This document shows, piece after piece, positions 1 through 64,000 of a DNA stretch of 64,000 nt. The first letter of the stretch is position 1; each line of letters begins with the position of its first letter. Location: sequence record ON286972; one strand, written 5' to 3'. The notes beneath the pieces are model-generated. The model made no database searches, was not told the origin of the DNA, and was given only the letters and a program-made list of their open reading frames with translations. Both the position numbers and the translations under genes were made by a program. The DNA is from Escherichia phage A4.

Positions 1-1
1 C

Positions 2-274
2 AAGAAGTACATGAATCATGAAGTACATTATGTTTTCGAGGACGGTAAAGAATATTTTGCTTATTTGAGTCCCAGGAGTTTAGGTAAGTACGAGTTGCTT
101 CAGGATCTTTCTCTTATGCAGGAAGATGAATTATTTCAGTACAGTCTAATTCATGACCCTTATATGTTTGATATAGATATTATGTGCAGTTTACAGAAGA
201 GGATGAAAGAAGTTTGGGATTCGATTAAAAGAGGTGATTGTATAGAATATGATAGTATACAAGAAGATGCCTAA
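2..274 (+). CDS. hypothetical protein, FQxS-motif paralog family (5' partial)
   Basis: Frame open from window edge; C-terminal motif DELFQYSLIHDPY shared with downstream paralogs. Confidence 0.5.
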   Translation, partial: KKYMNHEVHYVFEDGKEYFAYLSPRSLGKYELLQDLSLMQEDELFQYSLIHDPYMFDIDIMCSLQKRMKEVWDSIKRGDCIEYDSIQEDA

Positions 275-467
275 CGGATATGAATTGAAGTACAGACATT
301 TTATTCGAAATGTAGAATCAGATCCTTTTAATGTTAAAATGGCAGAGTTCGATTTATTATTTTATCTAGGAACGAGAGCACAGCCACAATTCGTTGATGC
401 ATACATAAGGGCTTTACGAACAGAGATAGTATGCACACCAAAGGAGTCTAAATGTACAAAAATGTAA
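249..467 (+). CDS. hypothetical small protein, FxLGT-motif family
   Basis: ORF-track ORF; motif LLFYLGTRAQ..YIRAL matches 452..709 and 10494..10918; start 249 or 267. Confidence 0.45.
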   Translation: MIVYKKMPNGYELKYRHFIRNVESDPFNVKMAEFDLLFYLGTRAQPQFVDAYIRALRTEIVCTPKESKCTKM

Positions 468-709
468 ACCATCATTTGTACGCATCAAAGTACAGGGATT
501 TTTGTTTACAAGGGGGCGATGAAGATTTTGCTTTGCGATTATCGGAATTTAATATGTTATTTTATCTTGGTACATCAGTACAAGAAGAAATGGTACAGAA
601 ATTTATCAAGCACCTTGAACGAAAAATTCATACGCAAATTTTGGTTGTTAAGTTACAGAATGAGATAAATGAATACAATGCAGAATCTAACAGTAGTACA
701 GGATCTTAG
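452..709 (+). CDS. hypothetical small protein, FxLGT-motif family
   Basis: Motif MLFYLGTSVQEEMVQKFIKHL, paralog of 249..467. Confidence 0.5.
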   Translation: MYKNVNHHLYASKYRDFCLQGGDEDFALRLSEFNMLFYLGTSVQEEMVQKFIKHLERKIHTQILVVKLQNEINEYNAESNSSTGS

Positions 710-1070
710 ACCAGTAATAATGATGTTAAATGCAAGACGAGATTTATGGCACGAAATGCATAACAACAAGGATTCATTTGCACAAATCAATTTAGTCTTT
801 CAGGAGTTAATCCAGAGTGCATTGGATGTTATAGTACCAAAATACAAAGATGGTATATTCTGTGTAAAGAATGCAGTTCGTCCTCATGCAATTCCAAGGA
901 AAATTAAGTTAGCCAGATTAACATTTGACGAGAGGGATTTCTTCAGTTATAATCCCAGTACAGCTTTATATTTTATTCCTGATTCAGACAAATATCATCC
1001 TATCCATTACGGATGGATTATGTCGTATGTAGTGAATGAAACGGAATACCCTATTAAATGGGAAAGATGA
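669..1070 (+). CDS. hypothetical protein
   Basis: ORF-track ORF in the + strand gene series; no recognised motif. Confidence 0.4.
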   Translation: MNTMQNLTVVQDLRPVIMMLNARRDLWHEMHNNKDSFAQINLVFQELIQSALDVIVPKYKDGIFCVKNAVRPHAIPRKIKLARLTFDERDFFSYNPSTALYFIPDSDKYHPIHYGWIMSYVVNETEYPIKWER

Positions 1071-1255
1071 TGATAGATGCAAAGACATTAAATGCATTAA
1101 ATGCATTACAGGATTCATTATTAGATAGTATTAAGCTGTATTACAATATGCATTTGAGGGGTGGTATCAATGATTACAATTATTATTTGAGTGTAATTAT
1201 ATTTGAGCATCTTTCAGTACAGGATAGAATTTTACACAAGTACAAACATTATTGA
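1058..1255 (+). CDS. hypothetical protein
   Basis: Short ORF, 4-nt overlap with upstream gene. Confidence 0.3.
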   Translation: MGKMMIDAKTLNALNALQDSLLDSIKLYYNMHLRGGINDYNYYLSVIIFEHLSVQDRILHKYKHY

Positions 1256-1266
1256 GGAAACAAAAT

Positions 1267-1617
1267 ATGTTCAATAAAATCATGTTCATTTTAACATTTG
1301 TGTTTTTATCATTTATAAACACCGCACATACAGCACAGGCATCATCGGATGTACCGTTATATGAAACATACAAATTTGATTGCAGATTACAGAATAATGA
1401 AATAATCAATATCTTTTTACACAATACAGAAGTACCTTATTTGCAGATTGAAGCAACGAAGTACATGTATTATGGTACGAATTCAGTACAGGAATTTTTA
1501 TTCAAACACACCAATCAGGATGTAATTATATCATTGCAGTACGTTGATAGTTCATTGTCTTTAATGCATTTCAAGAATGCAGAGGGATTAGTTACAGTGC
1601 TCAAATGCTATAGGTAA
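1267..1617 (+). CDS. hypothetical protein with N-terminal signal-peptide-like hydrophobic segment
   Basis: ATG at 1267 preceded by GAGG; N-terminus MFNKIMFILTFVFLSFINTAHTAQA; track start 1252 is a TTG. Confidence 0.45.
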   Translation: MFNKIMFILTFVFLSFINTAHTAQASSDVPLYETYKFDCRLQNNEIINIFLHNTEVPYLQIEATKYMYYGTNSVQEFLFKHTNQDVIISLQYVDSSLSLMHFKNAEGLVTVLKCYR

Positions 1618-1623
1618 TAATAT

Positions 1624-2139
1624 ATGAATGAAATTGAATTATTAACGCACAAGATTAGTACAATAATGCTTATGCTCAAAAATAATCATCCTATACATAA
1701 GTACATTGATATAGATGAATTACGCATAGAAGATAGGCATGGTAAATTATCGTTTATGTTTCACAATGCAAATAATGCAGGGAATGTTAACGTTTGTATT
1801 GCAGCATTTACCCAAGCCAATCCAGTACAAACATCTCCTGTTGTATACGAAAATAAAGAAGGGTATTTGTGGGTAAACACAAACGATTATTTCTTTTATG
1901 ATTTGAAACAAGATGATGAAGTAGAAGAACGAATTGATTTAATTGATATTAGTACAGATTGTAGTGCTGAATTATTTCAGAAATCGTTATTATATAGTCC
2001 TCGTCAAATGCATTATCTAAAGTTATTCAGTTCATTGTACGCGAATCCTTTAATTAAGGGTTTTAAATTTTATATAAAAGTTCCTGACATTCAAGCAGTT
2101 TATGATATTTTGATGCAAGGATATAGTTATGAAGTATAA
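1624..2139 (+). CDS. hypothetical protein, FQxS-motif paralog family
   Basis: Motif AELFQKSLLYSP. Confidence 0.55.
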   Translation: MNEIELLTHKISTIMLMLKNNHPIHKYIDIDELRIEDRHGKLSFMFHNANNAGNVNVCIAAFTQANPVQTSPVVYENKEGYLWVNTNDYFFYDLKQDDEVEERIDLIDISTDCSAELFQKSLLYSPRQMHYLKLFSSLYANPLIKGFKFYIKVPDIQAVYDILMQGYSYEV

Positions 2140-2437
2140 AATGCTTTATACAAAAGATATGATTTATGTTGAATTAGAAGGCGATGAAGACGGTTGGAAT
2201 TTGATTTATTCAAGTAGTTCAGGTTGGTACATGGCACATTTAAATGATAACGAAGTTACAGATTATTTTGTAGATTTCAATACATTATCAGACGAAGAAT
2301 TGTTTCAACAGCAATTAGTGATTGACACGGGTGGTTATGATGTGTTATTATTAAAAAAGATACAGAAAGCTGTTATGAATTTTAATGCCCAAGTATCCGA
2401 ATGGGAAAGGAAATATTATGACCTCGAAGTACAATAA
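2129..2437 (+). CDS. hypothetical protein, FQxS-like (divergent)
   Basis: Motif EELFQQQLVID. Confidence 0.5.
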   Translation: MKYKMLYTKDMIYVELEGDEDGWNLIYSSSSGWYMAHLNDNEVTDYFVDFNTLSDEELFQQQLVIDTGGYDVLLLKKIQKAVMNFNAQVSEWERKYYDLEVQ

Positions 2438-2786
2438 TACATTTGATATTAATAAGTTAACAGAATGGTTTTATAATATTGAAATTGAAGCTATTCCGTA
2501 TCACAAGTACGAACAACGTGATTTGCGTAGTATAGATATTCGTGAGTTGTACGAGTATTATCAGAGTGCATTAGAGATGCATAAGATATTTTTGAGTACA
2601 GAATACATGACACGTTGTAATGATGCGTTTGATGAATTCAAGAAGAATGATAATTTAGTACAGAAATATGTAATAGCAAAGTACATGTACCTTCAGGGAA
2701 TTACAAGTATAGTGGAATTCAATACAGTTCTTGCTTTAGTTGAGATTATTTTATTATGCAAAAATGTAAAGTGGAATTTAGTTTAG
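2385..2786 (+). CDS. hypothetical protein
   Basis: ORF-track ORF; start uncertain (alternative ATG ~2418). Confidence 0.45.
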   Translation: MPKYPNGKGNIMTSKYNNTFDINKLTEWFYNIEIEAIPYHKYEQRDLRSIDIRELYEYYQSALEMHKIFLSTEYMTRCNDAFDEFKKNDNLVQKYVIAKYMYLQGITSIVEFNTVLALVEIILLCKNVKWNLV

Positions 2787-3253
2787 AGAGTGCTGTACAG
2801 TACGTTAAGTACATTGAAGGTGTATACAATATAATGAAAGCATATGAAGGAAAAGGATATGCTTCAATAAATCACAAATATGATTACATCAACAATCAGT
2901 TAGAAGAATCAAATTCAGGTAAAGTGCTTTTTAGTTTTTTATATTTTGCTCCTGACAATGTATATCCTGATGAAGATGATCTTCGTCTGGATAGAGATGA
3001 CCTGTGGTATATGTATCCAGGACGTGATAAGCCAATGGATGATGCTTTGTTGGAAATCAAATACAGTACAGAACCATTGACACCGGAGTTGTGGTTCCAG
3101 TACAGTACAATACATGAAGAAATTGATATCTTTTTCTACGCAATATACAAGATGCTTTATGAGAATGGTGTGCTTAAGAATCATGTATATTTTTATTTCC
3201 AGCAAATGAAAAATGTATATGAGTCCTTTTACCCAACCGAGCCTGTATCGTAA
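2756..3253 (+). CDS. hypothetical protein, FQxS-motif paralog family
   Basis: Motif ELWFQYSTIHEE. Confidence 0.55.
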   Translation: MQKCKVEFSLESAVQYVKYIEGVYNIMKAYEGKGYASINHKYDYINNQLEESNSGKVLFSFLYFAPDNVYPDEDDLRLDRDDLWYMYPGRDKPMDDALLEIKYSTEPLTPELWFQYSTIHEEIDIFFYAIYKMLYENGVLKNHVYFYFQQMKNVYESFYPTEPVS

Positions 3254-3278
3254 GATATGGGCTTTTTTCGTTTTGGTA

Positions 3279-3307
3279 TTGACATAGAAGACCAAAGCTG
3301 TTATCAT
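3279..3307 (+). promoter_or_regulatory. sigma70-like promoter (TTGACA-17-TATCAT)
   Basis: Hexamers read in intergenic spacer upstream of 3334; AGGAG RBS follows. Confidence 0.4.
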
Positions 3308-3333
3308 GTGTATTCATTTTAAAGGAGACATTT

Positions 3334-3858
3334 ATGGCGAGTTTCATGATCCCAAGTACATACGAAGATGCATCAAGTGCAGTGTATAAGGTTCATTATA
3401 TTTTTAATTTAATTATTAGTGCATCAAAAAATAAAATGTATGCACCTCTTGTGAAATATGATAAAAATGAGGAAATTTTTGTTAGCACAGAACAAACGAT
3501 TTTTCCATATTTCAAAGAAGATAGATTGTGGTTCATGCATTCAGTCGTATTACAAAGATATAATATAACAAGGTCCAATGAGCATGATTATTTGGATATA
3601 CAATTAGATCAACCCGATATTGGAGAGGATGAATATTTTCAGTACAGCACAGTACACCACCATGAAGATATCTTTGCTGCTATGCTTATTGCTAAATTGA
3701 ACACCGTTGATTTGGAGCAGCACAAATACAATAATAAATCATGTAAGATCATAATCCCTGCATTCATTGCTCTTTATGATTACATTGTGCATAACAAAAA
3801 AGATGATACCTATGCTTTCAATGAAGAGTATTTGGATTTTTTTAAGGAGAACATATGA
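3334..3858 (+). CDS. hypothetical protein, FQxS-motif paralog family
   Basis: Motif EYFQYSTVHHHED; RBS AGGAG upstream. Confidence 0.6.
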   Translation: MASFMIPSTYEDASSAVYKVHYIFNLIISASKNKMYAPLVKYDKNEEIFVSTEQTIFPYFKEDRLWFMHSVVLQRYNITRSNEHDYLDIQLDQPDIGEDEYFQYSTVHHHEDIFAAMLIAKLNTVDLEQHKYNNKSCKIIIPAFIALYDYIVHNKKDDTYAFNEEYLDFFKENI

Positions 3859-4379
3859 GCAGTTCAACAATACAGAAAGCAATGACATTCAATGAAATTG
3901 GTGCATTTAAAGATAAGATTATTGATTGTATTGAATACGCGATTTGTAGTAATATCAAAAGTATAGAGGTATTTAACAAGTCAAATCGCTCTTACCATAT
4001 GATGTACATTGCAAACAATAATGGTATCATTCCATTTGTTTCGGATAGTACAATATGGTTCGCTTGCGATGTGAAAAAATACACAATAGGTTCATATGTC
4101 TTCGGTAAACATGGTGATCTAATTATTCCTGAGCATTGTATGCAAGAAGAAGAATATTTTCAAAAGCAATGTGTACATGAACCATTAGAGATGGTTGCTT
4201 TATATATGATACCTTATATCTCTAAATGTGTTCATGAGAATAAAGCTCCGTGGAATCATGAATTTGTATCGTTGAAGTTATTGTATAATGTTTTAGTACA
4301 ATATTATGATTACAGGCACAATGGTACAATCAGTGATGTATGGGATTTCGAAAATTTAAGGGTAAGTACATATGCATAA
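3855..4379 (+). CDS. hypothetical protein, FQxS-motif paralog family
   Basis: Motif EEYFQKQCVHEP; ATGA overlap with upstream gene. Confidence 0.55.
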   Translation: MSSSTIQKAMTFNEIGAFKDKIIDCIEYAICSNIKSIEVFNKSNRSYHMMYIANNNGIIPFVSDSTIWFACDVKKYTIGSYVFGKHGDLIIPEHCMQEEEYFQKQCVHEPLEMVALYMIPYISKCVHENKAPWNHEFVSLKLLYNVLVQYYDYRHNGTISDVWDFENLRVSTYA

Positions 4380-5010
4380 TTTTCCCAGAAATGCTTCACC
4401 GTATGAGGTGATGAAGTTCATGGAGCCTCATGTTCCTTATATGTTTGAAATGCTAAAGAAGTTCAATGCTATTTTCCCTGAGAATTCAAAATTGGAGATT
4501 CCATTTGATTCCGCATCCAGATACAGTGCATCCTGTGGTAAATTAGTTTTAGTTATCGGTAGTGACAGAATTGGTTTCAGGGAAGTATTTGACACGTCAT
4601 TAGCATTTGGTATATTCGATAACAACAATAACATCACATACATTGACAAGTACATTTGCGACATAGCAGGTTCCTCTAAGCCTGATTCCTTTGTGGATTC
4701 AGTTGCAGATTATGGTGTTTCAAAAGATGGTAATGTAATAAGTACAAAGACGTTCATATCATTATCGTTAGAAGATGACATATGTTACATTGCAGGTCAA
4801 GAGTACGAGGGTGTAGAGGAAGTGCTTTTTCAAATGTCCTTAGTACAGAAGGATATGGTGGACCCTACCGAAATCCTGAAGTTGTGCAAATATGCGAATG
4901 AGTACAAGAAATTGATTGAACCTGGGTTTAGTTTCAGTGCACAGAGTCCACATTTTCAGATAAAAGTATATGAAGATTTCATTTTGAAGTTAAAAGAGAT
5001 TGTGTTATAA
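4372..5010 (+). CDS. hypothetical protein, FQxS-motif paralog family
   Basis: Motif EVLFQMSLVQKD. Confidence 0.55.
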   Translation: MHNFPRNASPYEVMKFMEPHVPYMFEMLKKFNAIFPENSKLEIPFDSASRYSASCGKLVLVIGSDRIGFREVFDTSLAFGIFDNNNNITYIDKYICDIAGSSKPDSFVDSVADYGVSKDGNVISTKTFISLSLEDDICYIAGQEYEGVEEVLFQMSLVQKDMVDPTEILKLCKYANEYKKLIEPGFSFSAQSPHFQIKVYEDFILKLKEIVL

Positions 5011-5053
5011 TACGCTATAACATGCAATAACACACAATACAACAAAGACGGGA

Positions 5054-5599
5054 GTGATTGATATGATCCAGCACAAACATTTTGAGTACGAGTTCGCTGA
5101 CAATTTAGTAAAAATCGTACAGGCGTTTGAGGCTGGGGATTTTGACCACATCTATCCTAAGCACAAGGAAGGATGGCTTGAGCCTAAGAGCGATATTGAA
5201 CAGTATCCCTCTATTGTGTATTACAGGAGAGATACGGTAATGCACGCTGTAGGTGAGAAGATGCAGTTAGAGTATTGTCTTTTGTTCAATGCTATTACAT
5301 CGGCTACATCAGCATCTGAAGAGTTCGCTCCAGTGAATTGGATTCGTTATTTGGATATGAGCAAGAGAGAGGAAGAAACCTTTTTTGGTTTAACAAAGCA
5401 CGTTGATATTGCAACCTTAAATCCTAACATCCTGAGTCCTGAAGAATATTTTCAGGAGTCCTTAGTACAAGATCCTTATGTTTTACAGGTGCAGCAAGTA
5501 TATAATGTATTACGTGCTAATGTGAAAACGAATTTCTTTTTAGCTTTAACGTGGTACGATAGGTTAGTAAAAGATCTCAAAGAGATTAAGGGGGAGTAA
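5054..5599 (+). CDS. hypothetical protein, FQxS-motif paralog family
   Basis: Motif EEYFQESLVQDPY. Confidence 0.6.
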   Translation: MIDMIQHKHFEYEFADNLVKIVQAFEAGDFDHIYPKHKEGWLEPKSDIEQYPSIVYYRRDTVMHAVGEKMQLEYCLLFNAITSATSASEEFAPVNWIRYLDMSKREEETFFGLTKHVDIATLNPNILSPEEYFQESLVQDPYVLQVQQVYNVLRANVKTNFFLALTWYDRLVKDLKEIKGE

Positions 5600-6165
5600 T
5601 GCTGGACCTTCAGGACATAGAAAGTACATGCAAAGTGATAGAAGATGATTTAGAATACATCAAGGGGTTGTATTTAATTGTAGATAGGATTTACAAAAAT
5701 CCGAATGCGTTTCAGGAAACGTACCAGCATGATAAATTTCGTCACGATGCAATCATTACGCTTATGTCGGATTTATCGATTTACGAAAGAAAATCCAACA
5801 AATCACATAGTGTATTATTTGTGAGTACAGATAGATTTTACAGTACAACATCAATTTGTTCAGATGTATCATGTGCATGGTTCAGTTCAAATGAATATAT
5901 AACAGTTAAAAATAATGGCGAAAATGAGAAATTAAAAGTAAGTGAGCTTATTGATTTGATGCCATATAGTCCTGATGTAGTGTTTCAGTACAGTACATTG
6001 CACGATTATAATTCAATACGATATCGTTATTTTGTTAAGCATTATTATGATACCTTCGGGGAGTTAACGGAGAAGTTAACGTTGAGATTTGACAGAGATA
6101 TCGATCTCGTTGCATTGAATCAGTACCTTCAGGAAGTGTTTGATATAAACGCGGAAAAGGGGTAA
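5599..6165 (+). CDS. hypothetical protein, FQxS-motif paralog family
   Basis: Motif VVFQYSTLHDYN. Confidence 0.6.
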   Translation: MLDLQDIESTCKVIEDDLEYIKGLYLIVDRIYKNPNAFQETYQHDKFRHDAIITLMSDLSIYERKSNKSHSVLFVSTDRFYSTTSICSDVSCAWFSSNEYITVKNNGENEKLKVSELIDLMPYSPDVVFQYSTLHDYNSIRYRYFVKHYYDTFGELTEKLTLRFDRDIDLVALNQYLQEVFDINAEKG

Positions 6166-6379
6166 TTTTAAAATGATAAATATAGGCTTGTTTTTGGGGG
6201 CGTTTTGGGGGGTCAAAAAAATTTTCGCTGAAAAACATGTTAAGGTATATGTTTAATATAAAATTTTATATTGTGTTTTTCAGAGTACAGTTCATGTTTC
6301 CTTAAACAAAAAATACCCCCCGCCGCCGAACGTGCTCCTTATATTGGAGTTTACCTTATTAATTATAGTAGAGGTTATT

Positions 6380-6736
6380 ATGAGCAATGATTTTGCTATT
6401 CACAGTTTTTTCTACAAAAAGGTTGAGTTCTATTGTAATCTCGTTAAGGGTGATACCAATCATTCGTTGGACCAATATATTAAGTACACCTCAAATGGAT
6501 TTTCTTTTGTTGATTACGGTCGAGTTGGTGGTGGTGTTAATGAACCTATGCTGGACTATACAGAAATGGATGAGGCTACTCTATTTCAGGAATCATTAGT
6601 GTTCGATAAGAAATATATTTGTACACTAGATGAAGTTATTGGTATTCAGAATATCATGAAAGAATACTCTGCGAAGTGCATGATGGAATTAACTCAAGAT
6701 AAGCACAAGACTGTTCAGTGCTATTTCAATCTTTAG
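6380..6736 (+). CDS. hypothetical protein, FQxS-motif paralog family
   Basis: Motif ATLFQESLVFDKK; ATG at 6380 with GAGG RBS preferred over track start 6332. Confidence 0.55.
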   Translation: MSNDFAIHSFFYKKVEFYCNLVKGDTNHSLDQYIKYTSNGFSFVDYGRVGGGVNEPMLDYTEMDEATLFQESLVFDKKYICTLDEVIGIQNIMKEYSAKCMMELTQDKHKTVQCYFNL

Positions 6737-7092
6737 GGGTCTTAACTATGACATACAATGAATACCGTGAAATAGATCTTCTCCAGAATACATTATATGA
6801 AATTGAAGATTTAATGCACGGATGGACAAGTCTTTCTTTCTTTAATGAAATGTTCGAAGAAATAAAAGTAGTACTACAGAAAAAACATAATGGTACTAAA
6901 ATTAAAATAAAGACTTTCACTGGAGAAGTCTGGTGCGGAGAAATTGTGAAATACATTATAACTCGCAATAACGCATCATTCTGTTTGAATACTGGTCATT
7001 ACAGAAATCATTTCAACAATAGCAGTACTCAAGTTATTTCCGAGGAAGAATACAATGAGCACTGTAATAAACTTCTTAAGAGTAGATTCTAA
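6718..7092 (+). CDS. hypothetical protein
   Basis: ORF-track ORF; alternative start ~6748. Confidence 0.4.
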   Translation: MLFQSLGVLTMTYNEYREIDLLQNTLYEIEDLMHGWTSLSFFNEMFEEIKVVLQKKHNGTKIKIKTFTGEVWCGEIVKYIITRNNASFCLNTGHYRNHFNNSSTQVISEEEYNEHCNKLLKSRF

Positions 7093-7418
7093 TGAATACT
7101 AAAATATATGTTTCTTCAAGTACAATGGGAAGTGGTTTTACTTATACGTGCTTTTTTACTACATTGAATAAAACACCTATATTGATTATTCGTGATTTCA
7201 ATGAATGTAATATTGAGTACGTATCCAAAACAGATAAGCTTCCTAATTACATCGAATGTGAATACATGGAGAACTATGAAAGTTTTATATTTCAGGAATC
7301 ATTAGTATGGGATAAAGAAATCGATTTCTTTATGTACCTTGCATTACAAAAGTACTACAGAGATAACAAGGACAAAATAGTTCGTTCTTGCATTTATTCT
7401 ATTAATCTGGAGTACTGA
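7092..7418 (+). CDS. hypothetical protein, FQxS-motif paralog family
   Basis: Motif FIFQESLVWDKE. Confidence 0.55.
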   Translation: MNTKIYVSSSTMGSGFTYTCFFTTLNKTPILIIRDFNECNIEYVSKTDKLPNYIECEYMENYESFIFQESLVWDKEIDFFMYLALQKYYRDNKDKIVRSCIYSINLEY

Positions 7419-7589
7419 TGCTTAAAAAAGAACAAATGGAATCATTAATGAATGCAGTTATTCGTCGTTTTGTTAAAGACATTAGTCATAAAAACTGTAT
7501 TACAAATGACAGGTACGGTATAGAATTGTATATAGCTAATATTCACATGGCGTACAGAGAATATATTAAGACACGTCACAGGGGTTGAA

Positions 7590-8072
7590 ATGAGTTTAGA
7601 AAGTGCATTGAAAGAAGCAAAGAAGATTCATGAGTACATGAATATGGCAAAAGAAGGTTCAGTTTACGGTATTTTCAAAGACACAAGTACTCAATATTAT
7701 GTCTCTGATAACCTCATTGATAATGACTTCCCAGATACAGAAACGTGCGTACTAGATACCGACCCTAATGATTATGAATGTTTCATTGATATGCATAATG
7801 AGTACATGGTCTATGTTAATGATGGAGATATTACCATCTACAGTACTGTCCACGATACCGATGACATTATAATTCCGTGTGCAGTACTGGATGGTCCTTG
7901 GGATAGTGAAGAGTATTACTTCCAACAAAGTACTGTATACAATGAAGAAGAACTTGATTGTATTGTAATTATGTGGTACTTTAAAAGTATTGGTTCTGAG
8001 AACTTCTATTTCGATTACAGATACGTAAAGAAAACTGTAGATAACGGTATTAATAAACTTCACAGGGGTTGA
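7590..8072 (+). CDS. hypothetical protein, FQxS family, tandem copy 1 of 4
   Basis: N-terminus MSLESALKEAKKIHEYM, motif EYYFQQSTVYNEE..IMWYFKS; near-identical to 8984..9439. Confidence 0.65.
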   Translation: MSLESALKEAKKIHEYMNMAKEGSVYGIFKDTSTQYYVSDNLIDNDFPDTETCVLDTDPNDYECFIDMHNEYMVYVNDGDITIYSTVHDTDDIIIPCAVLDGPWDSEEYYFQQSTVYNEEELDCIVIMWYFKSIGSENFYFDYRYVKKTVDNGINKLHRG

Positions 8073-8073
8073 A

Positions 8074-8544
8074 ATGAGTTTAGAAAGAGCATTAGAGATT
8101 GCGAAGTTAATTGATTTATGCAGCAAAGAAATTGTATCAAATTGTCTCAATGGATATCTATTCAAGGAAGGTAAATCATATTGTCGAATGATATACGATG
8201 ACAGTAGTGAATATATTCATATGTATGAAGAAAATTTAGATTCTTCTGAAACAACACTCATTGGATGTGATGTTAATTTGGAAGATAATTACATGTACTT
8301 CTGTCGTGATGCTGATATTTTAATCCAAGATTCATTTATTCAAACAGGTGCACCAGAGGTATATATTCCGTATTCAGTACTGGATAATGACTGGGGAAGT
8401 GAAGAGTTCTACTTCCAGCAGAATACTATCTACGAGGAAGATGTGCTTGACAAGCTTGTCATTCTGTGGTACTTTAACAACACTGATTGTCCTAGCTTCT
8501 ATATGGACTTGGATCTATTACGAGTTATAAAAGAGGATATATGA
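8074..8544 (+). CDS. hypothetical protein, FQxS family, tandem copy 2 of 4
   Basis: MSLERALEIAK.., motif EFYFQQNTIYEED..ILWYFNN. Confidence 0.65.
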   Translation: MSLERALEIAKLIDLCSKEIVSNCLNGYLFKEGKSYCRMIYDDSSEYIHMYEENLDSSETTLIGCDVNLEDNYMYFCRDADILIQDSFIQTGAPEVYIPYSVLDNDWGSEEFYFQQNTIYEEDVLDKLVILWYFNNTDCPSFYMDLDLLRVIKEDI

Positions 8545-8984
8545 GTTTAGTAAGTGCACTTGAACTGGCACACAAAATACATCACTTCCACGATAACATA
8601 AAAAGTGGGTTCTATGGTGATAAAGTAAGTGCTTTTGGTAATGAGTATTATCTATCAGGTATAAAGACATACTCTGCTGATATTTTACTTATGGGTCATG
8701 ATAAAGACAATACTATACAGTACTCTTCATGTAGTCAATATACTAGTTTTATGGTATATATTCCAGGTACTAAGATTACTTTTGACACATCAAATTCACC
8801 TGTTGACTTCGGGGTACTTGATGGCCCGTGGGGTACTGAAGAGTATTACTTCCAACAGAGTCTCATTTTTAACCAAGAAATGCTTGATTCCTTGGTTGTG
8901 TTGTGGTACTTTAAGGAATTGAATTTTGAACCATTCTTTCTTGACTGGGGAGCATGTGAATATTTAAGTACAGGGGATTTGTAA
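8541..8984 (+). CDS. hypothetical protein, FQxS family, tandem copy 3 of 4
   Basis: MSLVSALELAHK.., motif EYYFQQSLIFNQE..VLWYFKE. Confidence 0.65.
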   Translation: MSLVSALELAHKIHHFHDNIKSGFYGDKVSAFGNEYYLSGIKTYSADILLMGHDKDNTIQYSSCSQYTSFMVYIPGTKITFDTSNSPVDFGVLDGPWGTEEYYFQQSLIFNQEMLDSLVVLWYFKELNFEPFFLDWGACEYLSTGDL

Positions 8985-9439
8985 TGTCGTTACAAAGTGC
9001 ATTGAAAGAAGCAAAGAAGATTCATGAGTACATGATTAAGGTCAAAGGTGGAGAAATTCCAGGTATCTTCAAAATGTCAGAGACTGAATATTGCACGAAG
9101 AATATTGAGGATTTTGATGGTTCTGATACATTAGTACTGCAATGTGATGATTATGATCATGATAATTGTGGTTATAACCCTTTGTACTACTTTATCAATT
9201 ACTACCCAGGGTCAGATATAACCGTATACAACCCTGATTATTATGCTAAAGATTTGACAATTCCGTTTTCAGTACTGGATGGTCCGTGGGATAGTGAAGA
9301 GTATTACTTTCAGCAAAGTACTGTATATACTGAACATGAACTCGATACTCTGGTCATTATGTGGTACTTTAAAAGTATAGATTCAACATGTTTCTATATG
9401 GATTATGAATACATAGAGACACAGAAATATAAGAGGTAA
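8984..9439 (+). CDS. hypothetical protein, FQxS family, tandem copy 4 of 4
   Basis: MSLQSALKEAKKIHEYM, motif EYYFQQSTVYTEHE..IMWYFKS. Confidence 0.65.
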   Translation: MSLQSALKEAKKIHEYMIKVKGGEIPGIFKMSETEYCTKNIEDFDGSDTLVLQCDDYDHDNCGYNPLYYFINYYPGSDITVYNPDYYAKDLTIPFSVLDGPWDSEEYYFQQSTVYTEHELDTLVIMWYFKSIDSTCFYMDYEYIETQKYKR

Positions 9440-9444
9440 TTGTA

Positions 9445-9891
9445 ATGTTTTTTTATTATTATGAAGTAAATGATAAGTTGGTTCAGGATATTGTACAAAT
9501 AATCAAGTACTTCAATGATAATCCTAACGTATTGGGTAGTGAGCTTGAATACGAGAAAGGTGGGTGTGTATATTTTACTTTCTGTGGTGGGTGCTCGGAA
9601 GAGCAATCATTTTTCAATTCTTATTCAAATTACATCTCCTATAATGCACTTGCAGACGAGTTGATTGTGGTACGTGACAGTAGTGATGACCGTACAGTGT
9701 ATACCAGAGAGACAATACAAAGTGTAGGTAATGAAGAAGGATACTTTCAATTGAGTACAGTACTGAATCATGAAGAACTACATGTATTACGTTTGTTTTA
9801 TCTTATTAGTACTATGAACTTGAAGCACGATCAGGTATACATTGATTTAGATTACTTTGAGTACTTACGTAAGATTAGTTCTAAAAAATAA
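9445..9891 (+). CDS. hypothetical protein, FQxS-motif paralog family
   Basis: Motif GYFQLSTVLNHEE; C-terminal VYIDLDYFEYL. Confidence 0.6.
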   Translation: MFFYYYEVNDKLVQDIVQIIKYFNDNPNVLGSELEYEKGGCVYFTFCGGCSEEQSFFNSYSNYISYNALADELIVVRDSSDDRTVYTRETIQSVGNEEGYFQLSTVLNHEELHVLRLFYLISTMNLKHDQVYIDLDYFEYLRKISSKK

Positions 9892-9902
9892 GTTCATGCT
9901 AT

Positions 9903-12926: not shown

Positions 12927-12928
12927 TT

Positions 12929-59812: not shown

Positions 59813-60187
59813 TTATGCTTTTTTACGTAGGATGTATTGTCCATTATGTAATTTAATTTTGTGAATCATGTACATAGTGCAAAACCCTTCAATACCTGCT
59901 TCTTCATCTTTCAATTTAATGAAGAAAGTATTATCTCTTAGGCTTTCTACAAGGCTTTCATCTGAATCTTCGAAATTCATGATATATGAATCTTTATTTC
60001 TATACACCATCTGAACATATTCATAAACCTTACCGCTTTCATCGATTAGATCATAAGTATGTGCTGAACGTTGTTTTAAAATATATAGTTTACCAAGAAT
60101 AGCTGCTCCATTAATTTTAGCACCAGTAATTTCGATACCATTAATAGAAAAAGGAAGTCTTCCGGTTAATGCAATTGGTTTACCCAT
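59813..60187 (-). CDS. hypothetical protein, paralog of the N-terminal domain of the Big_2 protein
   Basis: MGKPIALTGRLPFSINGIEITGAKINGAAILGKLYILKQRS.. aligns with N-termini of 60245..62413 and 62517..63020; start at internal Met. Confidence 0.55.
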   Translation of the reverse strand: MGKPIALTGRLPFSINGIEITGAKINGAAILGKLYILKQRSAHTYDLIDESGKVYEYVQMVYRNKDSYIMNFEDSDESLVESLRDNTFFIKLKDEEAGIEGFCTMYMIHKIKLHNGQYILRKKA

Positions 60188-60244
60188 TATTATACTTCTC
60201 CAAGTAAAGTGCATGATAATTTTCATGCACTATATTATTAAAAA

Positions 60245-62413
60245 TTAAGCACTGATTGTTACAGTTGCAGTATCAGTTTTATTGCCATTCGCAGTAGTCA
60301 CTGTAATGACTACAGTACCTTCTTCTAGAGCAGTTACTAATCCATCATCACTAATAGATACTTTAGTAGGTTCATCTGCACTATAAGTTACTGATTTGTT
60401 AGTTGCGTTAGCTGGAAGAACTTCTGGAACTAGTTGAACTGTTTTAGTACCTGATAGTGAAAGATCAGTGGCTTTAGGTGTTAAACCAACGCTGGATACT
60501 GGTACTGGAATATTAACAGTTACAGCACATTTTGCAGTTTTTGCACCATCAGTAGTTTTTACAGTGATATCAGCAGTACCGTTTGCAACAGCAGTGATTA
60601 AACCACTTGCACTAACAGTTGCGACCCCAGCAGCAGAAGTACTATAAGTTACTGCTTTGTTAGTTGCATTAGCTGGTAGTACAGTTGGTGTTAGTTGTTG
60701 AGTTGCACCAACAGATGTTAAAGTTGCTGTTGTTGGAGAAACAGAAACACTAGCTACAGGAACTGGGATTGACACAGTAATGACACCTTGACCTGTTTTA
60801 CCACTTCCATCAGCGGCAGTTGCGATAATGTTTGCAGTACCGTTAGTTAACGCAGTTACAACACCAGTACTAGCATCAACTTTCGCTACAGCAGGTGCAC
60901 TAGAAGACCATGTTACAGCTTTATTAGTTGCGTTAGCTGGAAGAACTTCAGCAGCCATTGCTTGAGTTGCGTTAACAGCAGTCAATGTTTTAGTTGCTGG
61001 AGTAACATTAATAGTTGTTACTGGAACTGGAATTGCTACAGTTACTGCACAAACTTTACTAAAGCCACCATCAGCAGTAGTAGCCGTGATATTAGCAGTG
61101 CCATTCGCTACCGCAGTGATTAAACCACTTGTACTAACGGTTGCAACACCAGCAGCAGAAGTTGCGTATGTTACTGCTTTGTTACGAGCATTAGCTGGTA
61201 GAACAGTTGCAGTTAATTGCTGTGTTGCACCAACAGAAGTTAATGAAGCGGTTGCAGGTGTTAGGTTAATACCAGTTACTGGAATCGTCACATCAATAAT
61301 TGATTGTGCGGTTTTTTCACCATCAATAGTTGTTACTGTAATAGTGGCAGTACCATTATTAACAGAAGTTACTAAACCGTCATCATCAACTTCTGCTACT
61401 GTAGGTGCAGAAGATTCATAACGAACTTCCTGATTTGATGCAGTTCTTGGTAGTACCGTTGCTGTTAATGGTTCATTTGCACCAATAGTAGTGAATGTAT
61501 ATGTTTCAGGTGTTAACGTAACACCAGTTACTGCTGTTTGAACTTTAATAGAAGAAGTATCAGTAAATGAACCATCTTCAGTTGTTGCAGTAATAGTAAC
61601 ATCACCATTGGATACACCTGTTACCAACCCAGAATCTTTATCAACTGTTGCAACGGATGGAGCAGATGAAGCCCATGTAACTTTCTTGTCTGTTGCTGAG
61701 GCCGGAGTAACTTCAGCTAACAATTGTTGAGTTGCCCCAACGTTTACAGTTGCAGTTTTAGGAGAAACGGTAACACCAGTAACACCAGTACTGACAACGA
61801 TAGAACACACATCTGTGAAATCACCATCGTGAGTTGTTACGGTTACATCAGCATTGCCATTTGCAAGTGCAGTTGCTAGACCTGTTTGAGCATCAACTTC
61901 AACGATTGTAGGAGCAGATGAAGAGTAGGTTACTGCCTTGTCTTTTGCATTAGATGGAACTACTTGGGCTGATAGTTGTTTTGTTGCACCAACTTTAAGA
62001 GATGCATCTTTGGGTGTAATTACAACACCAGTTACGGGGACATCAGCATTAACATAATCGCGTTTTACGATACGACCATTATTTAATTTAATAACACGAC
62101 CCATATAAAGCATAGTATATCCCATGCTAATACCATCATCAACATAGATCATGAATGAATTGTCTTGAACCATATTAATTGCGTCTGCTGGTTCAACAGA
62201 ATTTGGAATGTCGATACCACGAGTATCATACCAACGCATGGAAACTTTGTAATAGATATCACCATTATCATTGATGAGATCATACACGTTACCGGAACGT
62301 TGACGGTTAATATATAAAGTTTCGGTTAACACCTTACCATCGATTTTAGCGACGGAAACTTTAATACCACCAATACCAAAAGGCAATTTACCTTCACTAG
62401 ATATTGCTTTCAT
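60245..62413 (-). CDS. Ig-like (Big_2) repeat protein with unique N-terminal domain, likely virion-associated
   Basis: ~125-aa N-terminal domain followed by ~7 repeats of ~80 aa (..GATQQL.A.VLPANATNKAVTY.SSA..VA.V..SGL.TAVANGTA.IT..); TATAAATA upstream. Confidence 0.75.
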   Translation of the reverse strand: MKAISSEGKLPFGIGGIKVSVAKIDGKVLTETLYINRQRSGNVYDLINDNGDIYYKVSMRWYDTRGIDIPNSVEPADAINMVQDNSFMIYVDDGISMGYTMLYMGRVIKLNNGRIVKRDYVNADVPVTGVVITPKDASLKVGATKQLSAQVVPSNAKDKAVTYSSSAPTIVEVDAQTGLATALANGNADVTVTTHDGDFTDVCSIVVSTGVTGVTVSPKTATVNVGATQQLLAEVTPASATDKKVTWASSAPSVATVDKDSGLVTGVSNGDVTITATTEDGSFTDTSSIKVQTAVTGVTLTPETYTFTTIGANEPLTATVLPRTASNQEVRYESSAPTVAEVDDDGLVTSVNNGTATITVTTIDGEKTAQSIIDVTIPVTGINLTPATASLTSVGATQQLTATVLPANARNKAVTYATSAAGVATVSTSGLITAVANGTANITATTADGGFSKVCAVTVAIPVPVTTINVTPATKTLTAVNATQAMAAEVLPANATNKAVTWSSSAPAVAKVDASTGVVTALTNGTANIIATAADGSGKTGQGVITVSIPVPVASVSVSPTTATLTSVGATQQLTPTVLPANATNKAVTYSTSAAGVATVSASGLITAVANGTADITVKTTDGAKTAKCAVTVNIPVPVSSVGLTPKATDLSLSGTKTVQLVPEVLPANATNKSVTYSADEPTKVSISDDGLVTALEEGTVVITVTTANGNKTDTATVTISA
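60250..62040 (-). repeat. tandem Ig-like domain repeats within the Big_2 gene
   Basis: Recurrent stretches such as cagcagcagaagt and tactgctttgtta in successive units. Confidence 0.6.
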
Positions 62414-62457: not shown

Positions 62458-62481
62458 TTATACCAAAAGTATTTTAGGATT

Positions 62482-62503
62482 AAAAAAGGAGTCCGAAGAC
62501 TCC
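62482..62503 (-). terminator. rho-independent terminator for the upstream minus-strand gene
   Basis: Stem GGAGTC-cgaa-GACTCC with A6 on + strand (T-run on minus) just 3' of the gene ending at 62517. Confidence 0.55.
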
Positions 62504-62516
62504 TTAAAATATAAAG

Positions 62517-63020
62517 TTATTGGAAACGAGCATACGGTGGAAATCTGGTTTGGTCAGGCCAATCTTTCGGAGAGAAGTAAGCAGTGAATTGCATTTTATC
62601 ATTTGAATAAAGAACAAAATCATCTGGCTTTATTATAACTTTAGACAACGAATTTGGCTCCACGTTCGTTCTTCTGAAAATTATTTCACCATTATGTAAT
62701 TTTATTTTATTACTTTGATATTGAATACCAAAACCATACTTATTATTAATAGCATCAGCTTCTTTTATGCAAAATGTATTATTTGCTAAAGATTTAGCAA
62801 TTTCAGCATCGTCATCATCATACTACAATGTTGATTTATCTTTATTTCTACCTGTGATTTTTATCTTGAAATTTTCAGATATTAAATCATATGAATCGAA
62901 TGTTCTTTGTTTTATAACATACAATTCTTTAACAAATACTTGCCCTTCTATCTTTGCAGCAGTAACCTGCAATCCACCTATAACAAATGGAAATTGATCT
63001 AAGCCAGCTATTGGTTTCAT
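62517..63020 (-). pseudogene. paralog of Big_2 N-terminal domain, interrupted by in-frame amber (TAG) codon
   Basis: Track ORF 62823..63020 stops at TAG (+ strand 62823-62825); same frame continues to TAA at 62517-62519 and stays collinear with paralog 59813..60187 across the stop. Confidence 0.55.
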
Positions 63021-63154
63021 AACATCTCCTTACCTTAAAAATGGGATTGTAAACTGCCTCCCAATATGATACCATAGTTCAAATGGTCAATTGGTAAATC
63101 AATGAACTTAACAAAAACACTTGATACTACAGTCATAATTGTTCAGTTTTGCAC

Positions 63155-63183
63155 TTGACATAATTGATCAATTATTGTACTAT
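63155..63183 (+). promoter_or_regulatory. sigma70-like promoter (TTGACA-17-TACTAT)
   Basis: Hexamers in divergent intergenic region upstream of 63219. Confidence 0.35.
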
Positions 63184-63218
63184 TATTTATGTTCCTTAAC
63201 TCAAATCCGAGGTAATCA

Positions 63219-63824
63219 ATGAAACGAATCTTGAAAGAGATTGTACAAACCGTTGTTTTAATCGCTGCATTAAACTTTCCGGCAGCGGCAGAAGTTTCAA
63301 AAAAATCATCAGTTTTTCTATTAAATGAACATGTTGTGTCAATTGATGGTGAACTAAATGATGAAACTGTACAAGAAGTGAAGAAGTTGTGGAAAGAAAC
63401 AAGATTTAAAATTTTAACAATTACATCACCTGGTGGAGATTTTGATGCAGGATTAGATTTGGGATTGTTTGTGGCTGCTAAAAAGTTAACTGTTTATGTC
63501 CCAAAGCAATGTAATTCGTCTTGTAGTCTGGTTTTTTTCTCTGCATCATCTGAACGTAGGGATATGAGTGATACCGCAGTGATGGGTTTACATAACATCT
63601 CACTAGTATCTACGAATGGTGCAGATCCAGATACGACATTCGTTTCAGTTAGACAGTTGATGGAGTTTACACATCAAGTCTCAACTAAAGTTGGGTATCT
63701 TTTTACACTGTACGCACATAACGGTATCCCCGCTGAAACACTCATTGATATCAGTACTAAACATGGTGAGGATATCGTTGTCTTACGAAGAACAGATCTA
63801 GTTAAATGGGGAATTATTCAATAA
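63219..63824 (+). CDS. secreted ClpP/SppA-fold serine-peptidase-like protein
   Basis: Signal-peptide-like N-terminus (..VVLIAALNFPAAAEV); core ILTITSPGGDFDAGLDLGLF..CNSSCSLVFFSAS resembles the ClpP/S49 fold. Confidence 0.55.
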   Translation: MKRILKEIVQTVVLIAALNFPAAAEVSKKSSVFLLNEHVVSIDGELNDETVQEVKKLWKETRFKILTITSPGGDFDAGLDLGLFVAAKKLTVYVPKQCNSSCSLVFFSASSERRDMSDTAVMGLHNISLVSTNGADPDTTFVSVRQLMEFTHQVSTKVGYLFTLYAHNGIPAETLIDISTKHGEDIVVLRRTDLVKWGIIQ

Positions 63825-63950
63825 AAGTTGTATTTTTTATGAAGCAATGATATAATCCTAATACTAATTCATGATTTTGGTTAAGGGTGGTGTACTGCCA
63901 CCCGATTTTAAGATATAATGGTTGCACATTAAACAACCAAGGAAACAAAA

Positions 63951-64000
63951 AATGACAGAATTATCACATCTTCAAGGCTGGACAGAGTTCATCTTCTATG
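63951..64000 (+). CDS. hypothetical protein (3' partial at window edge)
   Basis: ATG 63951 after AAGGAAA; frame open to window end. Confidence 0.3.

Follow-up and report, generated by a model that had tools for sequence, protein, structure and literature searches.

The window analysed here, 64,000 nucleotides of Escherichia phage A4 (sequence record ON286972), belongs to an Asteriusvirus-like jumbo myovirus of the 121Q/PBECO4 group. Its left end (1-6554, + strand) is occupied by a block of about 15 co-oriented small genes which extends past the window end and is devoid of the trinucleotide ACT on the sense strand. The block contains a terminator-like hairpin (3239-3264, +) and, downstream of it, a sigma-70-like promoter, TTGACA-17-TATCAT (3279-3307, +); thus it carries more than one transcript. 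An intergenic spacer (6166-6331, +) closes the ACT-free gene set. The fold predicted for its RNA lacks significance. Conservation is higher in 6207-6377, which shares 94% identity with 121Q, than in the flanking genes. The right block boundary (6555-6875, +) comprises the first ACT at 6555 and the first GTACT at 6871, within an AGTACT at 6870-6875. Farther downstream are a predicted Dam-family phage N6-adenine methyltransferase (34965-35486, +), which the original prediction had recognized and which matches PF05869, an RNA ligase gene (42706-43851, +) in synteny with 121Q gp438, a terminator hairpin (45865-45888, +) formed by a perfect palindrome of 24 bp, AAAGGGATCAGTACTGATCCCTTT, with a T-run behind it, and a DNA ligase gene (53077-54495, +) with 88-90% amino-acid identity to Asteriusvirus ligases. 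Dispersed over the entire window (1-64000), without strand, is the palindrome (C)AGTACT(G).

The abundance of this palindrome is extraordinary. Counted on the + strand and compared with the expectation from base composition, AGTACT is present 175 times versus 21.6, i.e., about eightfold above chance, CAGTACTG 53 times versus 0.6, AGTAC 324 times versus 67.8, GTACT 258 times versus 62.6, and GTAC 540 times versus 196.8. The original prediction had noticed the over-representation of AGTAC; its expectation of roughly one per kilobase agrees with ours, and the excess is even stronger than it stated. In 100 dinucleotide-preserving shuffles CAGTACTG had a mean of 0.68 ± 0.84, and under a Markov model of maximal order the top words of their lengths are GTAC (z = 13.3) and AGTAC (z = 12.3). 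A shuffle preserving codon usage and protein sequence had been named as the decisive comparison. When synonymous codons are permuted per gene, which leaves both unchanged, the excess persists: AGTACT 175 versus 58.8 ± 6.1 (z = 19) and CAGTACTG 53 versus 8.4 ± 2.1 (z = 21). Whole-codon shuffles yield z-scores of 28 and 43, respectively.

As predicted, the motif populates all reading frames (81/24/56) and conserved enzymes, with five AGTACT in the RNA ligase, one in the polynucleotide kinase and five in the DNA ligase genes; four are inside the methyltransferase gene. Both local examples given at the outset are correct, ten AGTAC in 2401-3120 and a trio of AGTACT within an open reading frame (52620-52653; starts at 52620, 52630 and 52648). 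Terminator loops, also proposed as a location, are a minor component, since the hairpin at 45865-45888 is centred on the motif and no second clear case exists in the window. Across 6555-59785 the density of AGTACT is 3.2 per kb. Outside the early region coding (2.2-2.4 per kb) and non-coding DNA (2.44 per kb) are equal, and so is the enrichment in genes of both orientations. Spacing is near-exponential and devoid of phasing. Even density and exponential spacing would also result if a mutational drive or a repair drive had reached equilibrium.

The sequence logo is symmetric and spans 8 bp, with about 50% C at -1 and about 50% G at +1. Conversely, G at -1 and C at +1 are depleted, and C...G is by a wide margin the commonest flank pair. 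On the + strand outside the ACT-free block T comes next after only 64% of AGTAC; the full hexamer is thus not required. When window and 121Q are compared, 60 of 85 AGTACT sites are kept (71%), versus 631 of 1610 hexamers of the same composition (39%; Fisher P = 2e-8). As many sites were lost as gained (25/25), and local compensation within 100 bp is weak (9 versus 4.3, P = 0.017). The motif has even reshaped the phage protein sequences: the dipeptides Ser-Thr, Gln-Tyr and Val-Leu, singled out in the original prediction, are over-used compared with the same residues in reverse order, and AGT-ACT encodes 81 of the 127 Ser-Thr pairs.

The excess is a property of the lineage. It is shared by 121Q, fEgEco12 and Serratia phage BF, and it persists in metagenomic (IMG/VR) relatives whose ligases are as little as 63% identical. 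In the whole genome of 121Q AGTACT is the most extreme hexamer under synonymous shuffling (903 versus 362.8, z = 44). T4, PA5oct and XacN1 lack the excess or have AGTACT depleted. The hosts of all phages with the excess are Enterobacterales; the Pseudomonas and Xanthomonas relatives do not have it. Thus, AGTACT with preferred C...G flanks is a lineage-wide, highly iterated palindrome under selection at the DNA level, as had been suggested; codon-preserving shuffles, symmetric logo, conservation above background and dipeptide over-use concur.

The density of AGTACT peaks in the early genes and the terminal repeat. There, promoter-like sites carry AGTACT in two places counted from the -10 hexamer, -27 (AGTAC-TTGCAA) and -7/-8 (AGTACT-G-TATAAT), i.e., as a pair 20 bp apart which adjoins the -35 and -10 elements. 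This arrangement accounts for most early-region sites in fEgEco12, for 34 of 40 in 121Q and for 20 of 35 in BF, and is rare outside the early region. Two genera share these fixed positions, and AGTACT is enriched also in the untranscribed promoter DNA upstream of the start sites. Of the three roles originally envisaged, protein binding gains support from these operator-like positions; modification and nicking have none.

The ACT-free block is a hitherto unreported feature, a phenomenon separate from the AGTACT excess and more unusual. On the + strand ACT occurs 0 times in 1-6554 and elsewhere once per 51 bp; synonymous shuffling of the block genes generates 37.7 ± 4.8. Threonine is encoded by ACT in 3 of 88 cases in the first 6.9 kb versus 421 of 992 in the remainder. 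The complement, AGT, shows no avoidance. Blocks of 4.4-8.3 kb are present in five Asteriusvirus genomes, e.g., 7511 bp in 121Q, 8293 bp in fEgEco12, 7212 bp in Salmonella phage SD-15_S21 and 4447 bp in JNE01, and their gene content varies. Beyond the block neither 121Q nor the window has an ACT-free gene of at least 300 nt. One protein family has paralogues inside and outside the block; therefore, the absence of ACT is not explained by protein family.

AGTACT is impossible where sense-strand ACT is purged, and the motif persists in the block as its best ACT-free variant, AGTACA. AGTAC is enriched there (n = 51), T follows in none of the 51 (P = 6e-9), and AGTACA is found 42 times, where composition predicts 2.3 and shuffles give 16.1 ± 3.0; no other ACT-free variant reaches a similar enrichment. 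Counting either strand, loci with AGTAC are as numerous in the block as elsewhere. The switch of form reported near 6.8 kb is therefore real, with 42 of 51 AGTAC read as AGTACA before the first GTACT. Yet AGTACA and AGTACT are not two forms of one signal; the former is the remnant of the motif where ACT is forbidden.

We propose, tentatively and with a confidence slightly short of even, two independent, overlapping constraints: a protein-binding palindrome, AGTACT, and ACU-free mRNAs from the block. The palindrome is most likely bound by a phage-encoded dimeric DNA-binding protein. At the early promoters of the terminal repeat paired sites would act like operators; elsewhere, at about 2.4-3 sites per kb, the same protein might coat, organize or mark the whole phage chromosome. 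Comparison of about 25 window proteins with Pfam or PHROGs revealed no DNA-binding domain and no AGTACT-binding protein. In the block, the purge of ACT would yield messages which escape a trinucleotide-specific endoribonuclease active in infection; by analogy with known systems, the block messages are probably shielded from an ACU-directed enzyme. We know of no RNase in these hosts which cleaves exclusively at ACU. ACA and ACG are frequent in the block, which excludes MazF (ACA) and ChpBK, whose specificity is ACY. MazF-SEA and PemK cleave UACU and also UACG; as UACG remains in the block, MazF-SEA/PemK-xf are excluded as well. A candidate by analogy only is the phage PIN-PhoH (PhoH2-type) RNase/helicase. 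The mycobacterial PIN-PhoH prefers 5'-AC[A/U][A/U][G/C]; the phage gene lies outside the window and itself has 30 ACT. Alternatively, a single contiguous stretch which crosses an internal terminator and a promoter could originate from a region- and strand-specific DNA process.

Several other explanations have to be weighed. AGTACT, the ScaI site, has the typical form of a type II recognition palindrome, and the phages possess genes for a Dam-family N6A methyltransferase and for a short C5 methyltransferase. Accordingly, the motif might be a target of phage DNA modification, more sites affording more protection or a denser mark of self; HIP1 of cyanobacteria, the closest analogue, has methylated sub-motifs. 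We consider this unlikely. Restriction targets are usually avoided, not enriched, and by word counts GATC, TCTAGA and ACCGGT are indeed depleted here; the RaK2 paper reports CpG-type cytosine methylation; ten enzymes cut fEgEco12 DNA as predicted. Further, the operator-like positions are left unexplained, and AGTACA is kept in the block although it is no substrate for a hexamer-specific enzyme. No evidence links the Dam-type methylase to AGTACT, and the papers searched yielded neither methylome nor ScaI/RsaI data on these phages.

A functionless AGTACT generated from near-matches by biased repair or gene conversion, as by Dcm/Vsr, is rather improbable. It agrees with the equal densities in coding and non-coding DNA and in both gene orientations, with near-exponential spacing and with the density maximum in the terminal repeat, which is recombinogenic. 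Among one-mismatch neighbours the transitions AATACT (O/E 0.80) and AGTATT (O/E 0.89) are the most depleted in 121Q, if only mildly, a weak signature of short-patch repair; the deficit, about 90 sites, however falls far short of the excess of about 540. Neither AGTACA in the block, where a drive toward AGTACT cannot work, nor promoter positions fixed across two genera fit, and the 121Q annotation, checked without profiles, has no Vsr-like gene.

We also see little probability in a reading of the AGTAC pentamer on single strands, as a primase start or a Chi-like helicase-nuclease signal. The palindrome would then be the cheapest way to serve both strands, and ACT perhaps a primase trinucleotide, leaving the + strand of the block unprimed. 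Phage primases do recognize trinucleotides (T7 GTC, T4 GTT/GCT), the hexamer is incomplete in over a third of cases outside the block, either-strand AGTAC is undiminished in the block, and the absence of ACT is contiguous and strand-specific. But symmetric outer flanks indicate double-strand recognition, and a few priming sites would do no damage, so that a primase does not account for an absolute absence over 4-8 kb, nor for the promoter positions. An apparent mirror-image AGTAC-free stretch in relatives is in fact a tandem paralogue array of recent origin in which AGT is only mildly low, hence no polarity switch.

Very unlikely is AGUACU as an RNA cleavage site which programs short mRNA half-lives, modelled on RegB/GGAG in T4 early mRNAs, with the block escaping for want of ACU. 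It would unite both phenomena, the density peaks in early genes, and enterobacteria possess MazF/PemK-type enzymes cutting U^ACU; yet RNA recognition needs no reverse-complement symmetry of motif and flanks, enrichment is equal on either gene strand and reaches untranscribed promoter DNA, and AGUAC is still kept in the block. Titration or recruitment of the host nucleoid-occlusion factor SlmA has a negligible chance: its site, GTGAGTACTCAC, shares the AGTACT core and the restriction to Enterobacterales, but binding requires G1, T2, A4 and G5 of the 12-mer, and the sequence already contradicts this, for phage sites lack the outer GT(R)...(Y)AC bases, favour C where a purine is needed, match GT.AGTACT.AC only once in the window and twice in 121Q, and have G...C as the rarest flank pair in 121Q (3/903) and among the rarest in the window (2/175).

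Among known systems HIP1 (GCGATCGC) is a hyper-abundant palindrome kept by selection (PMC5861425). Both are short 8-bp palindromes, one to two orders of magnitude in excess, spread through non-coding DNA and every frame of coding DNA, and maintained by selection; HIP1 still has no proven function. HIP1 belongs to cellular genomes and the phage motif to a jumbo-phage clade of Enterobacterales; the latter lacks a GATC or CGATCG core as well as an evident cognate methylase, and it also occupies fixed operator-like positions in early promoters. CCWGG of E. coli (Dcm/Vsr) is likewise a palindrome-like word in excess in all frames with depleted T-for-C neighbours. In the phages this depletion is weak (0.8-0.9), a motif-specific C5 methylase or Vsr is not evident, and the AGTACA enrichment of the block cannot arise by such a drive. 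The pair of palindromes at -35/-10, two helical turns apart, resembles phage early-promoter operators; the difference is that AGTACT also occurs about 900 times genome-wide inside genes. Finally, the block resembles ACA-less (MazF) and GCU-less (MqsR) transcripts, in which entire genes are free of a trinucleotide on the sense strand and its complement shows no avoidance; complete absence is understandable, since one site suffices for cleavage. The phage case differs by its triplet, ACU, and by a contiguous extent of 4.4-8.3 kb which includes about 15-20 genes together with their spacers.

The palindrome AGTACT is strongly over-represented in the window. There are 175 copies where base composition predicts 21.6; the corresponding counts are 324 vs 67.8 for AGTAC and 540 vs 196.8 for GTAC. 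The 8-bp form with the preferred flanks, CAGTACTG, occurs 53 times against 0.6 expected from composition and 0.68 +/- 0.84 in dinucleotide-preserving shuffles. In a maximal-order Markov model GTAC (z = 13.3) and AGTAC (z = 12.3) are the top over-represented words of their own length. AGTACT occupies all three reading frames (81/24/56), and the window proteins over-use Ser-Thr (127 vs 68.8), Gln-Tyr (51 vs 31) and Val-Leu (150 vs 91). No such excess affects the reversed dipeptides, and AGT-ACT encodes 81 of the 127 Ser-Thr pairs. The original prediction had claimed the AGTAC/AGTACT excess, its spread over all frames and these three codon pairs; all of this is borne out, and the local examples it gave are exact. 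The excess also survives the codon- and protein-preserving shuffle which had been named as able to overturn it. When synonymous codons are shuffled within each gene AGTACT falls to 58.8 +/- 6.1 (z = 19) and CAGTACTG to 8.4 +/- 2.1 (z = 21); whole-codon shuffles yield z = 28 and 43, respectively. A codon or amino-acid artefact is ruled out by these shuffles. As a side observation, 121Q has an annotated tRNA-Ser with the anticodon ACT (25464-25555 of its sequence L007); it would decode AGU, a Ser codon whose use the motif raises through its AGT-ACT form.

All megablast matches to window 30000-38000 are Escherichia jumbo myoviruses of 350-385 kb, Asteriusvirus, at only about 80% identity; they include 121Q, PBECO4, phAPEC6 and SHEFM2K. 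The DNA ligase protein shares 90.5% identity with its Escherichia phage Turkey3 counterpart and 63.6% with the Serratia phage BF one, and for the next relatives the figure is at most 32%. About 26 kb of the window are colinear with 161.8-217.7 kb of 121Q at 82% identity. In the whole 121Q genome 903 copies of AGTACT are present vs 118 from composition and 362.8 in synonymous shuffles (z = 44), making it by a wide margin the most extreme hexamer. An assembly or sequencing artefact is ruled out since the excess, and likewise the ACT-free block described below, recur in independently sequenced genomes.

Nearly all window genes, from 1 to 59785, lie on the + strand. A stretch of 694 bp between two genes, 33083-33776, lacks a + strand ORF of at least 60 aa; its 121Q counterpart (192745-193356) is likewise unannotated. 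No Rfam family and no tRNA was detected in this stretch, and tRNA and Rfam scans of the whole window gave zero matches. A 470-aa phage protein (19130-20542, +) carries the signalling domain of methyl-accepting chemotaxis proteins (PF00015, E = 4e-37), which is unusual in a phage gene. On the opposite strand, 60245-62413 (-) encodes a 722-aa protein with seven Big_2 Ig-like domains, which has no 121Q counterpart at that position; the adjoining 137-aa ORF 59813-60226 is its paralogue.

The sequence logo of AGTACT is reverse-complement symmetric. C at -1 and G at +1 each reach about 50%, G is scarce at -1 and so is C at +1, and the flank pair C...G prevails; the surroundings are T-rich further 5' and A-rich further 3'. 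The sites are uniform along genes and their spacing is near-exponential, with no regular spacing or helical phasing. Genes of 121Q carry 2.2-2.4 sites per kb whichever way they are oriented, and its non-coding DNA, the early region excluded, carries 2.44 per kb. A placement in terminator loops, as originally proposed, applies to one motif-based hairpin (45865-45888), but this is the sole case in the window. In the segments aligned with 121Q 60 of 85 AGTACT sites are conserved vs 631 of 1610 hexamers of the same composition (Fisher P = 2e-8); conservation of all hexamers is 39%. Further, 25 sites exist only in the window and 25 only in 121Q, thus the motif system is at equilibrium. Lineage-specific replacement sites within 100 bp of lost ones number 9 vs 4.3 expected (P = 0.017).

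How far does the motif extend? In the loci surrounding the ligase gene AGTACT is a top hexamer in all IMG/VR relatives found (down to 63% identity, genomes of 355-360 kb), and the preferred flanked form shifts to AAGTACTT. The first 20 kb of Serratia phage BF (Eneladusvirus) contain 5-10 AGTACT per kb. The excess is missing in T4 (5 vs 10 expected), Pseudomonas phage PA5oct (1 vs 10) and Xanthomonas phage XacN1 (0 vs 6.3). Therefore, it is a trait of the RaK2/121Q-like jumbo phages of Enterobacterales. In PA5oct, a distant relative, it is CTGCAG, a different palindrome, that is five-fold over-represented (14 vs 2.9 +/- 1.9 in sequence L019, 1-30001; none of 100 shuffles reaches 14); this may be an analogous motif of other specificity.

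Other words are depleted. TATTTA and TAAATA are about ten-fold under-represented in the window (10 copies of the former vs 78 expected, 8 of the latter vs 91) and also in 121Q, where they are the most depleted hexamers under synonymous shuffling. Because related phages use ATAAATA as a late-promoter motif according to the CBB paper, the scarcity suggests that spurious late promoters are being avoided on both strands. Restriction-type words are scarce in the window and 121Q as well (O/E 0.6 for GATC, 0.57 for TGATCA, 0.43 for TCTAGA, 0.59 for TTCGAA), as are ACCGGT in 121Q (2 vs 35.8) and CTCAG in the window (2 vs 26). The depletion of GATC, TCTAGA, ACCGGT and the like is classic restriction avoidance, the opposite of the AGTACT excess.

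The most interesting result is a block at window 1-6554 which contains no ACT trinucleotide on the + strand, i.e., the sense strand. The original prediction had seen it only indirectly, as a predominance of AGTACA before about 6.8 kb. This switch of form stands, as none of the 69 GTAC in window 1-6800 is followed by T; yet its cause is a separate one, all ACT being missing. AACT, CACT, GACT and TACT are each absent from the block. The first ACT is at 6555, and thereafter they occur once per 51 bp (1131 in total). Thr is encoded by ACT in 3 of 88 cases in the first 6.9 kb vs 421 of 992 elsewhere in the window, and 15 of 15 AGT-ACN Ser-Thr pairs in the first 6.9 kb use ACA. Synonymous shuffling of the block creates 37.7 +/- 4.8 ACT across codon borders, with a minimum of 27 in 500 shuffles; none is observed. 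The constraint is strand-specific, for AGT, the reverse complement, shows no avoidance: the first 6.9 kb contain 170 copies where the remainder of the window predicts 133, and fEgEco12, another Asteriusvirus, has 20-32 per kb.

The same ACT-free block is present in 121Q (161803-169314, 7511 bp), fEgEco12 (29019-37312, 8293 bp), Salmonella phage SD-15_S21 (7212 bp) and the divergent JNE01 (4447 bp). After these blocks, the longest gaps between ACT measure about 450 bp. Outside the block neither 121Q nor the window has an ACT-free gene of at least 300 nt, and the first 30 kb of Serratia phage BF have no such block. The gene content of the block varies among the phages carrying it; that is, the ACT purge is conserved across the genus while the genes turn over. 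Its right end in the window lies at or just past the intergenic spacer 6166-6331, and a terminator and a promoter are also located inside the block. The conserved stretch at this spacer, 6207-6377, is 94% identical to 121Q vs 74-89% in the flanking coding DNA. Its G-runs lie about 110 nt from a complementary C-run; fold prediction for 6160-6390 gave no significant structure.

AGTAC is still enriched within the block (51 copies, 7.8 per kb). AGTACA is found 42 times vs 2.3 from composition and 16.1 +/- 3.0 in shuffles, and the remaining ACT-free variants are not comparably enriched. Thus, the motif pressure acts here too, via the best ACT-free variant, which argues that the function of the motif still allows an A:T to T:A change in the outer position.

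At least 16 adjacent window genes (1-18000; products of about 150-210 aa) are paralogues of a single family, marked by an invariant Phe-Gln within the signature EE-x-(Y/F)FQ-x-S(L/T). This FQ family spans the block and continues beyond it to about 18 kb. Consequently, position and not protein family defines the block. Descent from duplicated genes as the source of AGTACA and of the missing ACT is ruled out, since the members are only 11-23% identical and occur on both sides of the boundary. The block proteins have no Pfam matches, and every PHROG match is of 'unknown function'. An AlphaFold model based on the 16 window paralogues has a mean pLDDT of only 60.5 with half of the chain below 50, too poor for use.

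The block is most likely a set of ACU-free mRNAs which are immune to a putative ACU-directed endoribonuclease. This reading is favoured because all block genes lie on the + strand and the absence of ACT is absolute, as expected if a single site is fatal. ACA-less mRNAs escape MazF in just this manner. The known enterobacterial enzymes do not fit: ACA and ACG occur often in the block, which also contains UACG, a target that MazF-SEA and PemK-xf cleave along with UACU. 121Q gp480 (12166-13602 of sequence L003), annotated as PhoH-like, is a fusion of PIN_4 and PhoH, i.e., a PhoH2-type RNA helicase/RNase. Its gene, which has an ordinary ACT content, is located just past the part of 121Q that is homologous to the window. 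PhoH2 proteins of mycobacteria act as RNase/helicases with sequence specificity and prefer 5'-AC[A/U][A/U][G/C], and PIN-PhoH fusions have been noted in jumbo phages. By this analogy the 121Q protein is a candidate for the sequence-specific RNase behind the block, as a lead only. Alternatively, a strand-specific DNA process, e.g., one involving a primase triplet, may have made the block. It would account for one contiguous stretch running across an internal terminator and promoter, which speaks against the RNA reading.

The early promoters of related phages hint at what the motif does. fEgEco12 has experimentally defined ends and a direct terminal repeat of 20,993 bp (PMC13070987). Here AGTACT is densest, with 6-10 copies per kb (10.9 in spacers, 4.5 in genes). 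The repeat harbours sigma-70-like early promoters in which the motif occupies two positions. At the first it overlaps the start of the -35 element (AGTAC-TTGCAA), its A being at -27 relative to the -10 hexamer (18 promoters); at the second it is directly upstream of -10 (AGTACT-G-TATAAT, -7/-8; 17 promoters). Several promoters carry both. The same two positions, 20 bp apart, are occupied in 34 of 40 promoter-like sites in the 121Q early region (131-156 kb) and in 20 of 35 in Serratia phage BF (sequence L022, 1-21000; the fEgEco12 region is 1-20993 of L017); the motif is rare at these positions in promoter-like matches outside early regions. Dozens of near-identical sigma-70-like promoters lie in the early or terminal-repeat region. 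They are of two types, conserved across two genera: AAAAGTACTTGCAA-N16-TATAAT and TTGACA-N10-AGTACTGTATAAT (or AGTACTGGCATAAT). A pair of palindromes on the same helix face over -35 and -10, kept across two genera, looks like operators. Mainly because of these fixed positions we favour a dimeric DNA-binding protein, itself inferred, as the reader of the motif.

Other explanations of the motif fare less well. The proposal of selection at the DNA level is supported in part. The shuffles demonstrate selection beyond codon usage; a modification or restriction-modification target, one of the examples then offered, is without evidence. Dam-family and C5 methylases are encoded, and no enzyme specific for AGTACT or GTAC is annotated in 121Q. 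Against it also stand the depletion of other restriction-type palindromes, the CpG-type cytosine methylation reported in the RaK2 paper, and the finding that ten enzymes cut fEgEco12 DNA as predicted (PMC13070987). A repair drive toward the hexamer of the Dcm/Vsr type would fit the uniform site density. Most one-mismatch neighbours in 121Q are neutral or mildly enriched, and the transition neighbours are mildly depleted (O/E 0.80 for AATACT, 0.89 for AGTATT). However, a deficit of about 90 T-for-C neighbours vs an excess of about 540 is too weak a signature, and a drive to the full hexamer is contradicted by the enrichment of AGTACA in the ACT-free block and by the fixed promoter positions.

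A polar signal read on one strand (Chi, KOPS or a primase site), mirror-symmetric around an origin or break site, was considered because 121Q and fEgEco12 have an upstream stretch devoid of AGTAC, beginning where the terminal repeat ends. This stretch turned out to be a tandem array of at least 13 paralogous genes of about 70 aa (fEgEco12 20857-25378, 121Q 155502-159569) with a conserved LGTNYQE-like stretch, zero AGTAC and few GTAC, mostly TGTACT. AGT is only mildly reduced, there is no polarity switch and the motif is mostly palindromic, so the idea was dropped. SlmA binding is rejected although its 12-bp site GTGAGTACTCAC has an AGTACT core, as the required G1, T2, A4 and G5 with their mirror positions are missing (the window has a single GT.AGTACT.AC and 121Q has two) and the phage sites prefer C at position 3 where a purine is needed.

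Combining the dimeric reader with the ACU-free messages gives a picture which, as a joint proposition, we regard as tentative and rather unlikely to hold in full: an interferase-proof, ACU-free gene module together with a roughly 900-copy unmodified 'self' palindrome read by a phage protein. An ACU-specific endoribonuclease, phage-made or host-triggered and possibly PIN-PhoH2, would destroy host and ordinary phage messages, and the approximately 15-20 ACU-free genes adjoining the terminal repeat would remain translatable. Independently, some 900 chemically unmodified palindromes on the chromosome would be bound by a phage protein that would both shut off early promoters and mark or organise the phage DNA.

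If the block does reflect RNase immunity, jumbo phages would have a new level of control over gene expression or of evasion of defence, and the block would point to an ACU-specific nuclease of possible biotechnological use. The motif predicts unusually frequent cutting of these genomes by ScaI, RsaI and TatI and is a simple sequence signature for spotting members of the lineage in metagenomes. Searches of the literature for AGTACT/GTAC excess in phages, iterated palindromes in phages and trinucleotide-less phage genes returned no prior description. As far as searched, the ACT-free block, a one-strand trinucleotide purge across a multigene region, is undescribed.

Among known systems, the block resembles interferase-immune transcripts in that a triplet is wholly absent from the sense strand, over 1-6554 here and over 4.4-8.3 kb in four other genomes, and its reverse complement AGT is not avoided. 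For the phage motif, the nearest known counterpart is cyanobacterial HIP1, a palindrome that is likewise hyper-abundant and under selection and whose function is still not known (PMC5861425). Like HIP1, the phage motif shows an excess on the order of ten-fold or more (8.1-fold for AGTACT and 88-fold for CAGTACTG over composition in the window; 903 vs 118 in 121Q). Codon usage does not account for it: it occupies all frames of coding DNA and reaches like densities in non-coding DNA, and its sites are conserved between related genomes above background. We file the finding as allied to iterated palindromes and to interferase-immune transcripts, not as a member of either family. To the former the phages add operator-like copies at early promoters and a natural experiment, a block with a half-broken motif. 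The HIP1 puzzle is decades old, and a culturable coliphage lineage is a far more tractable system for such motifs.
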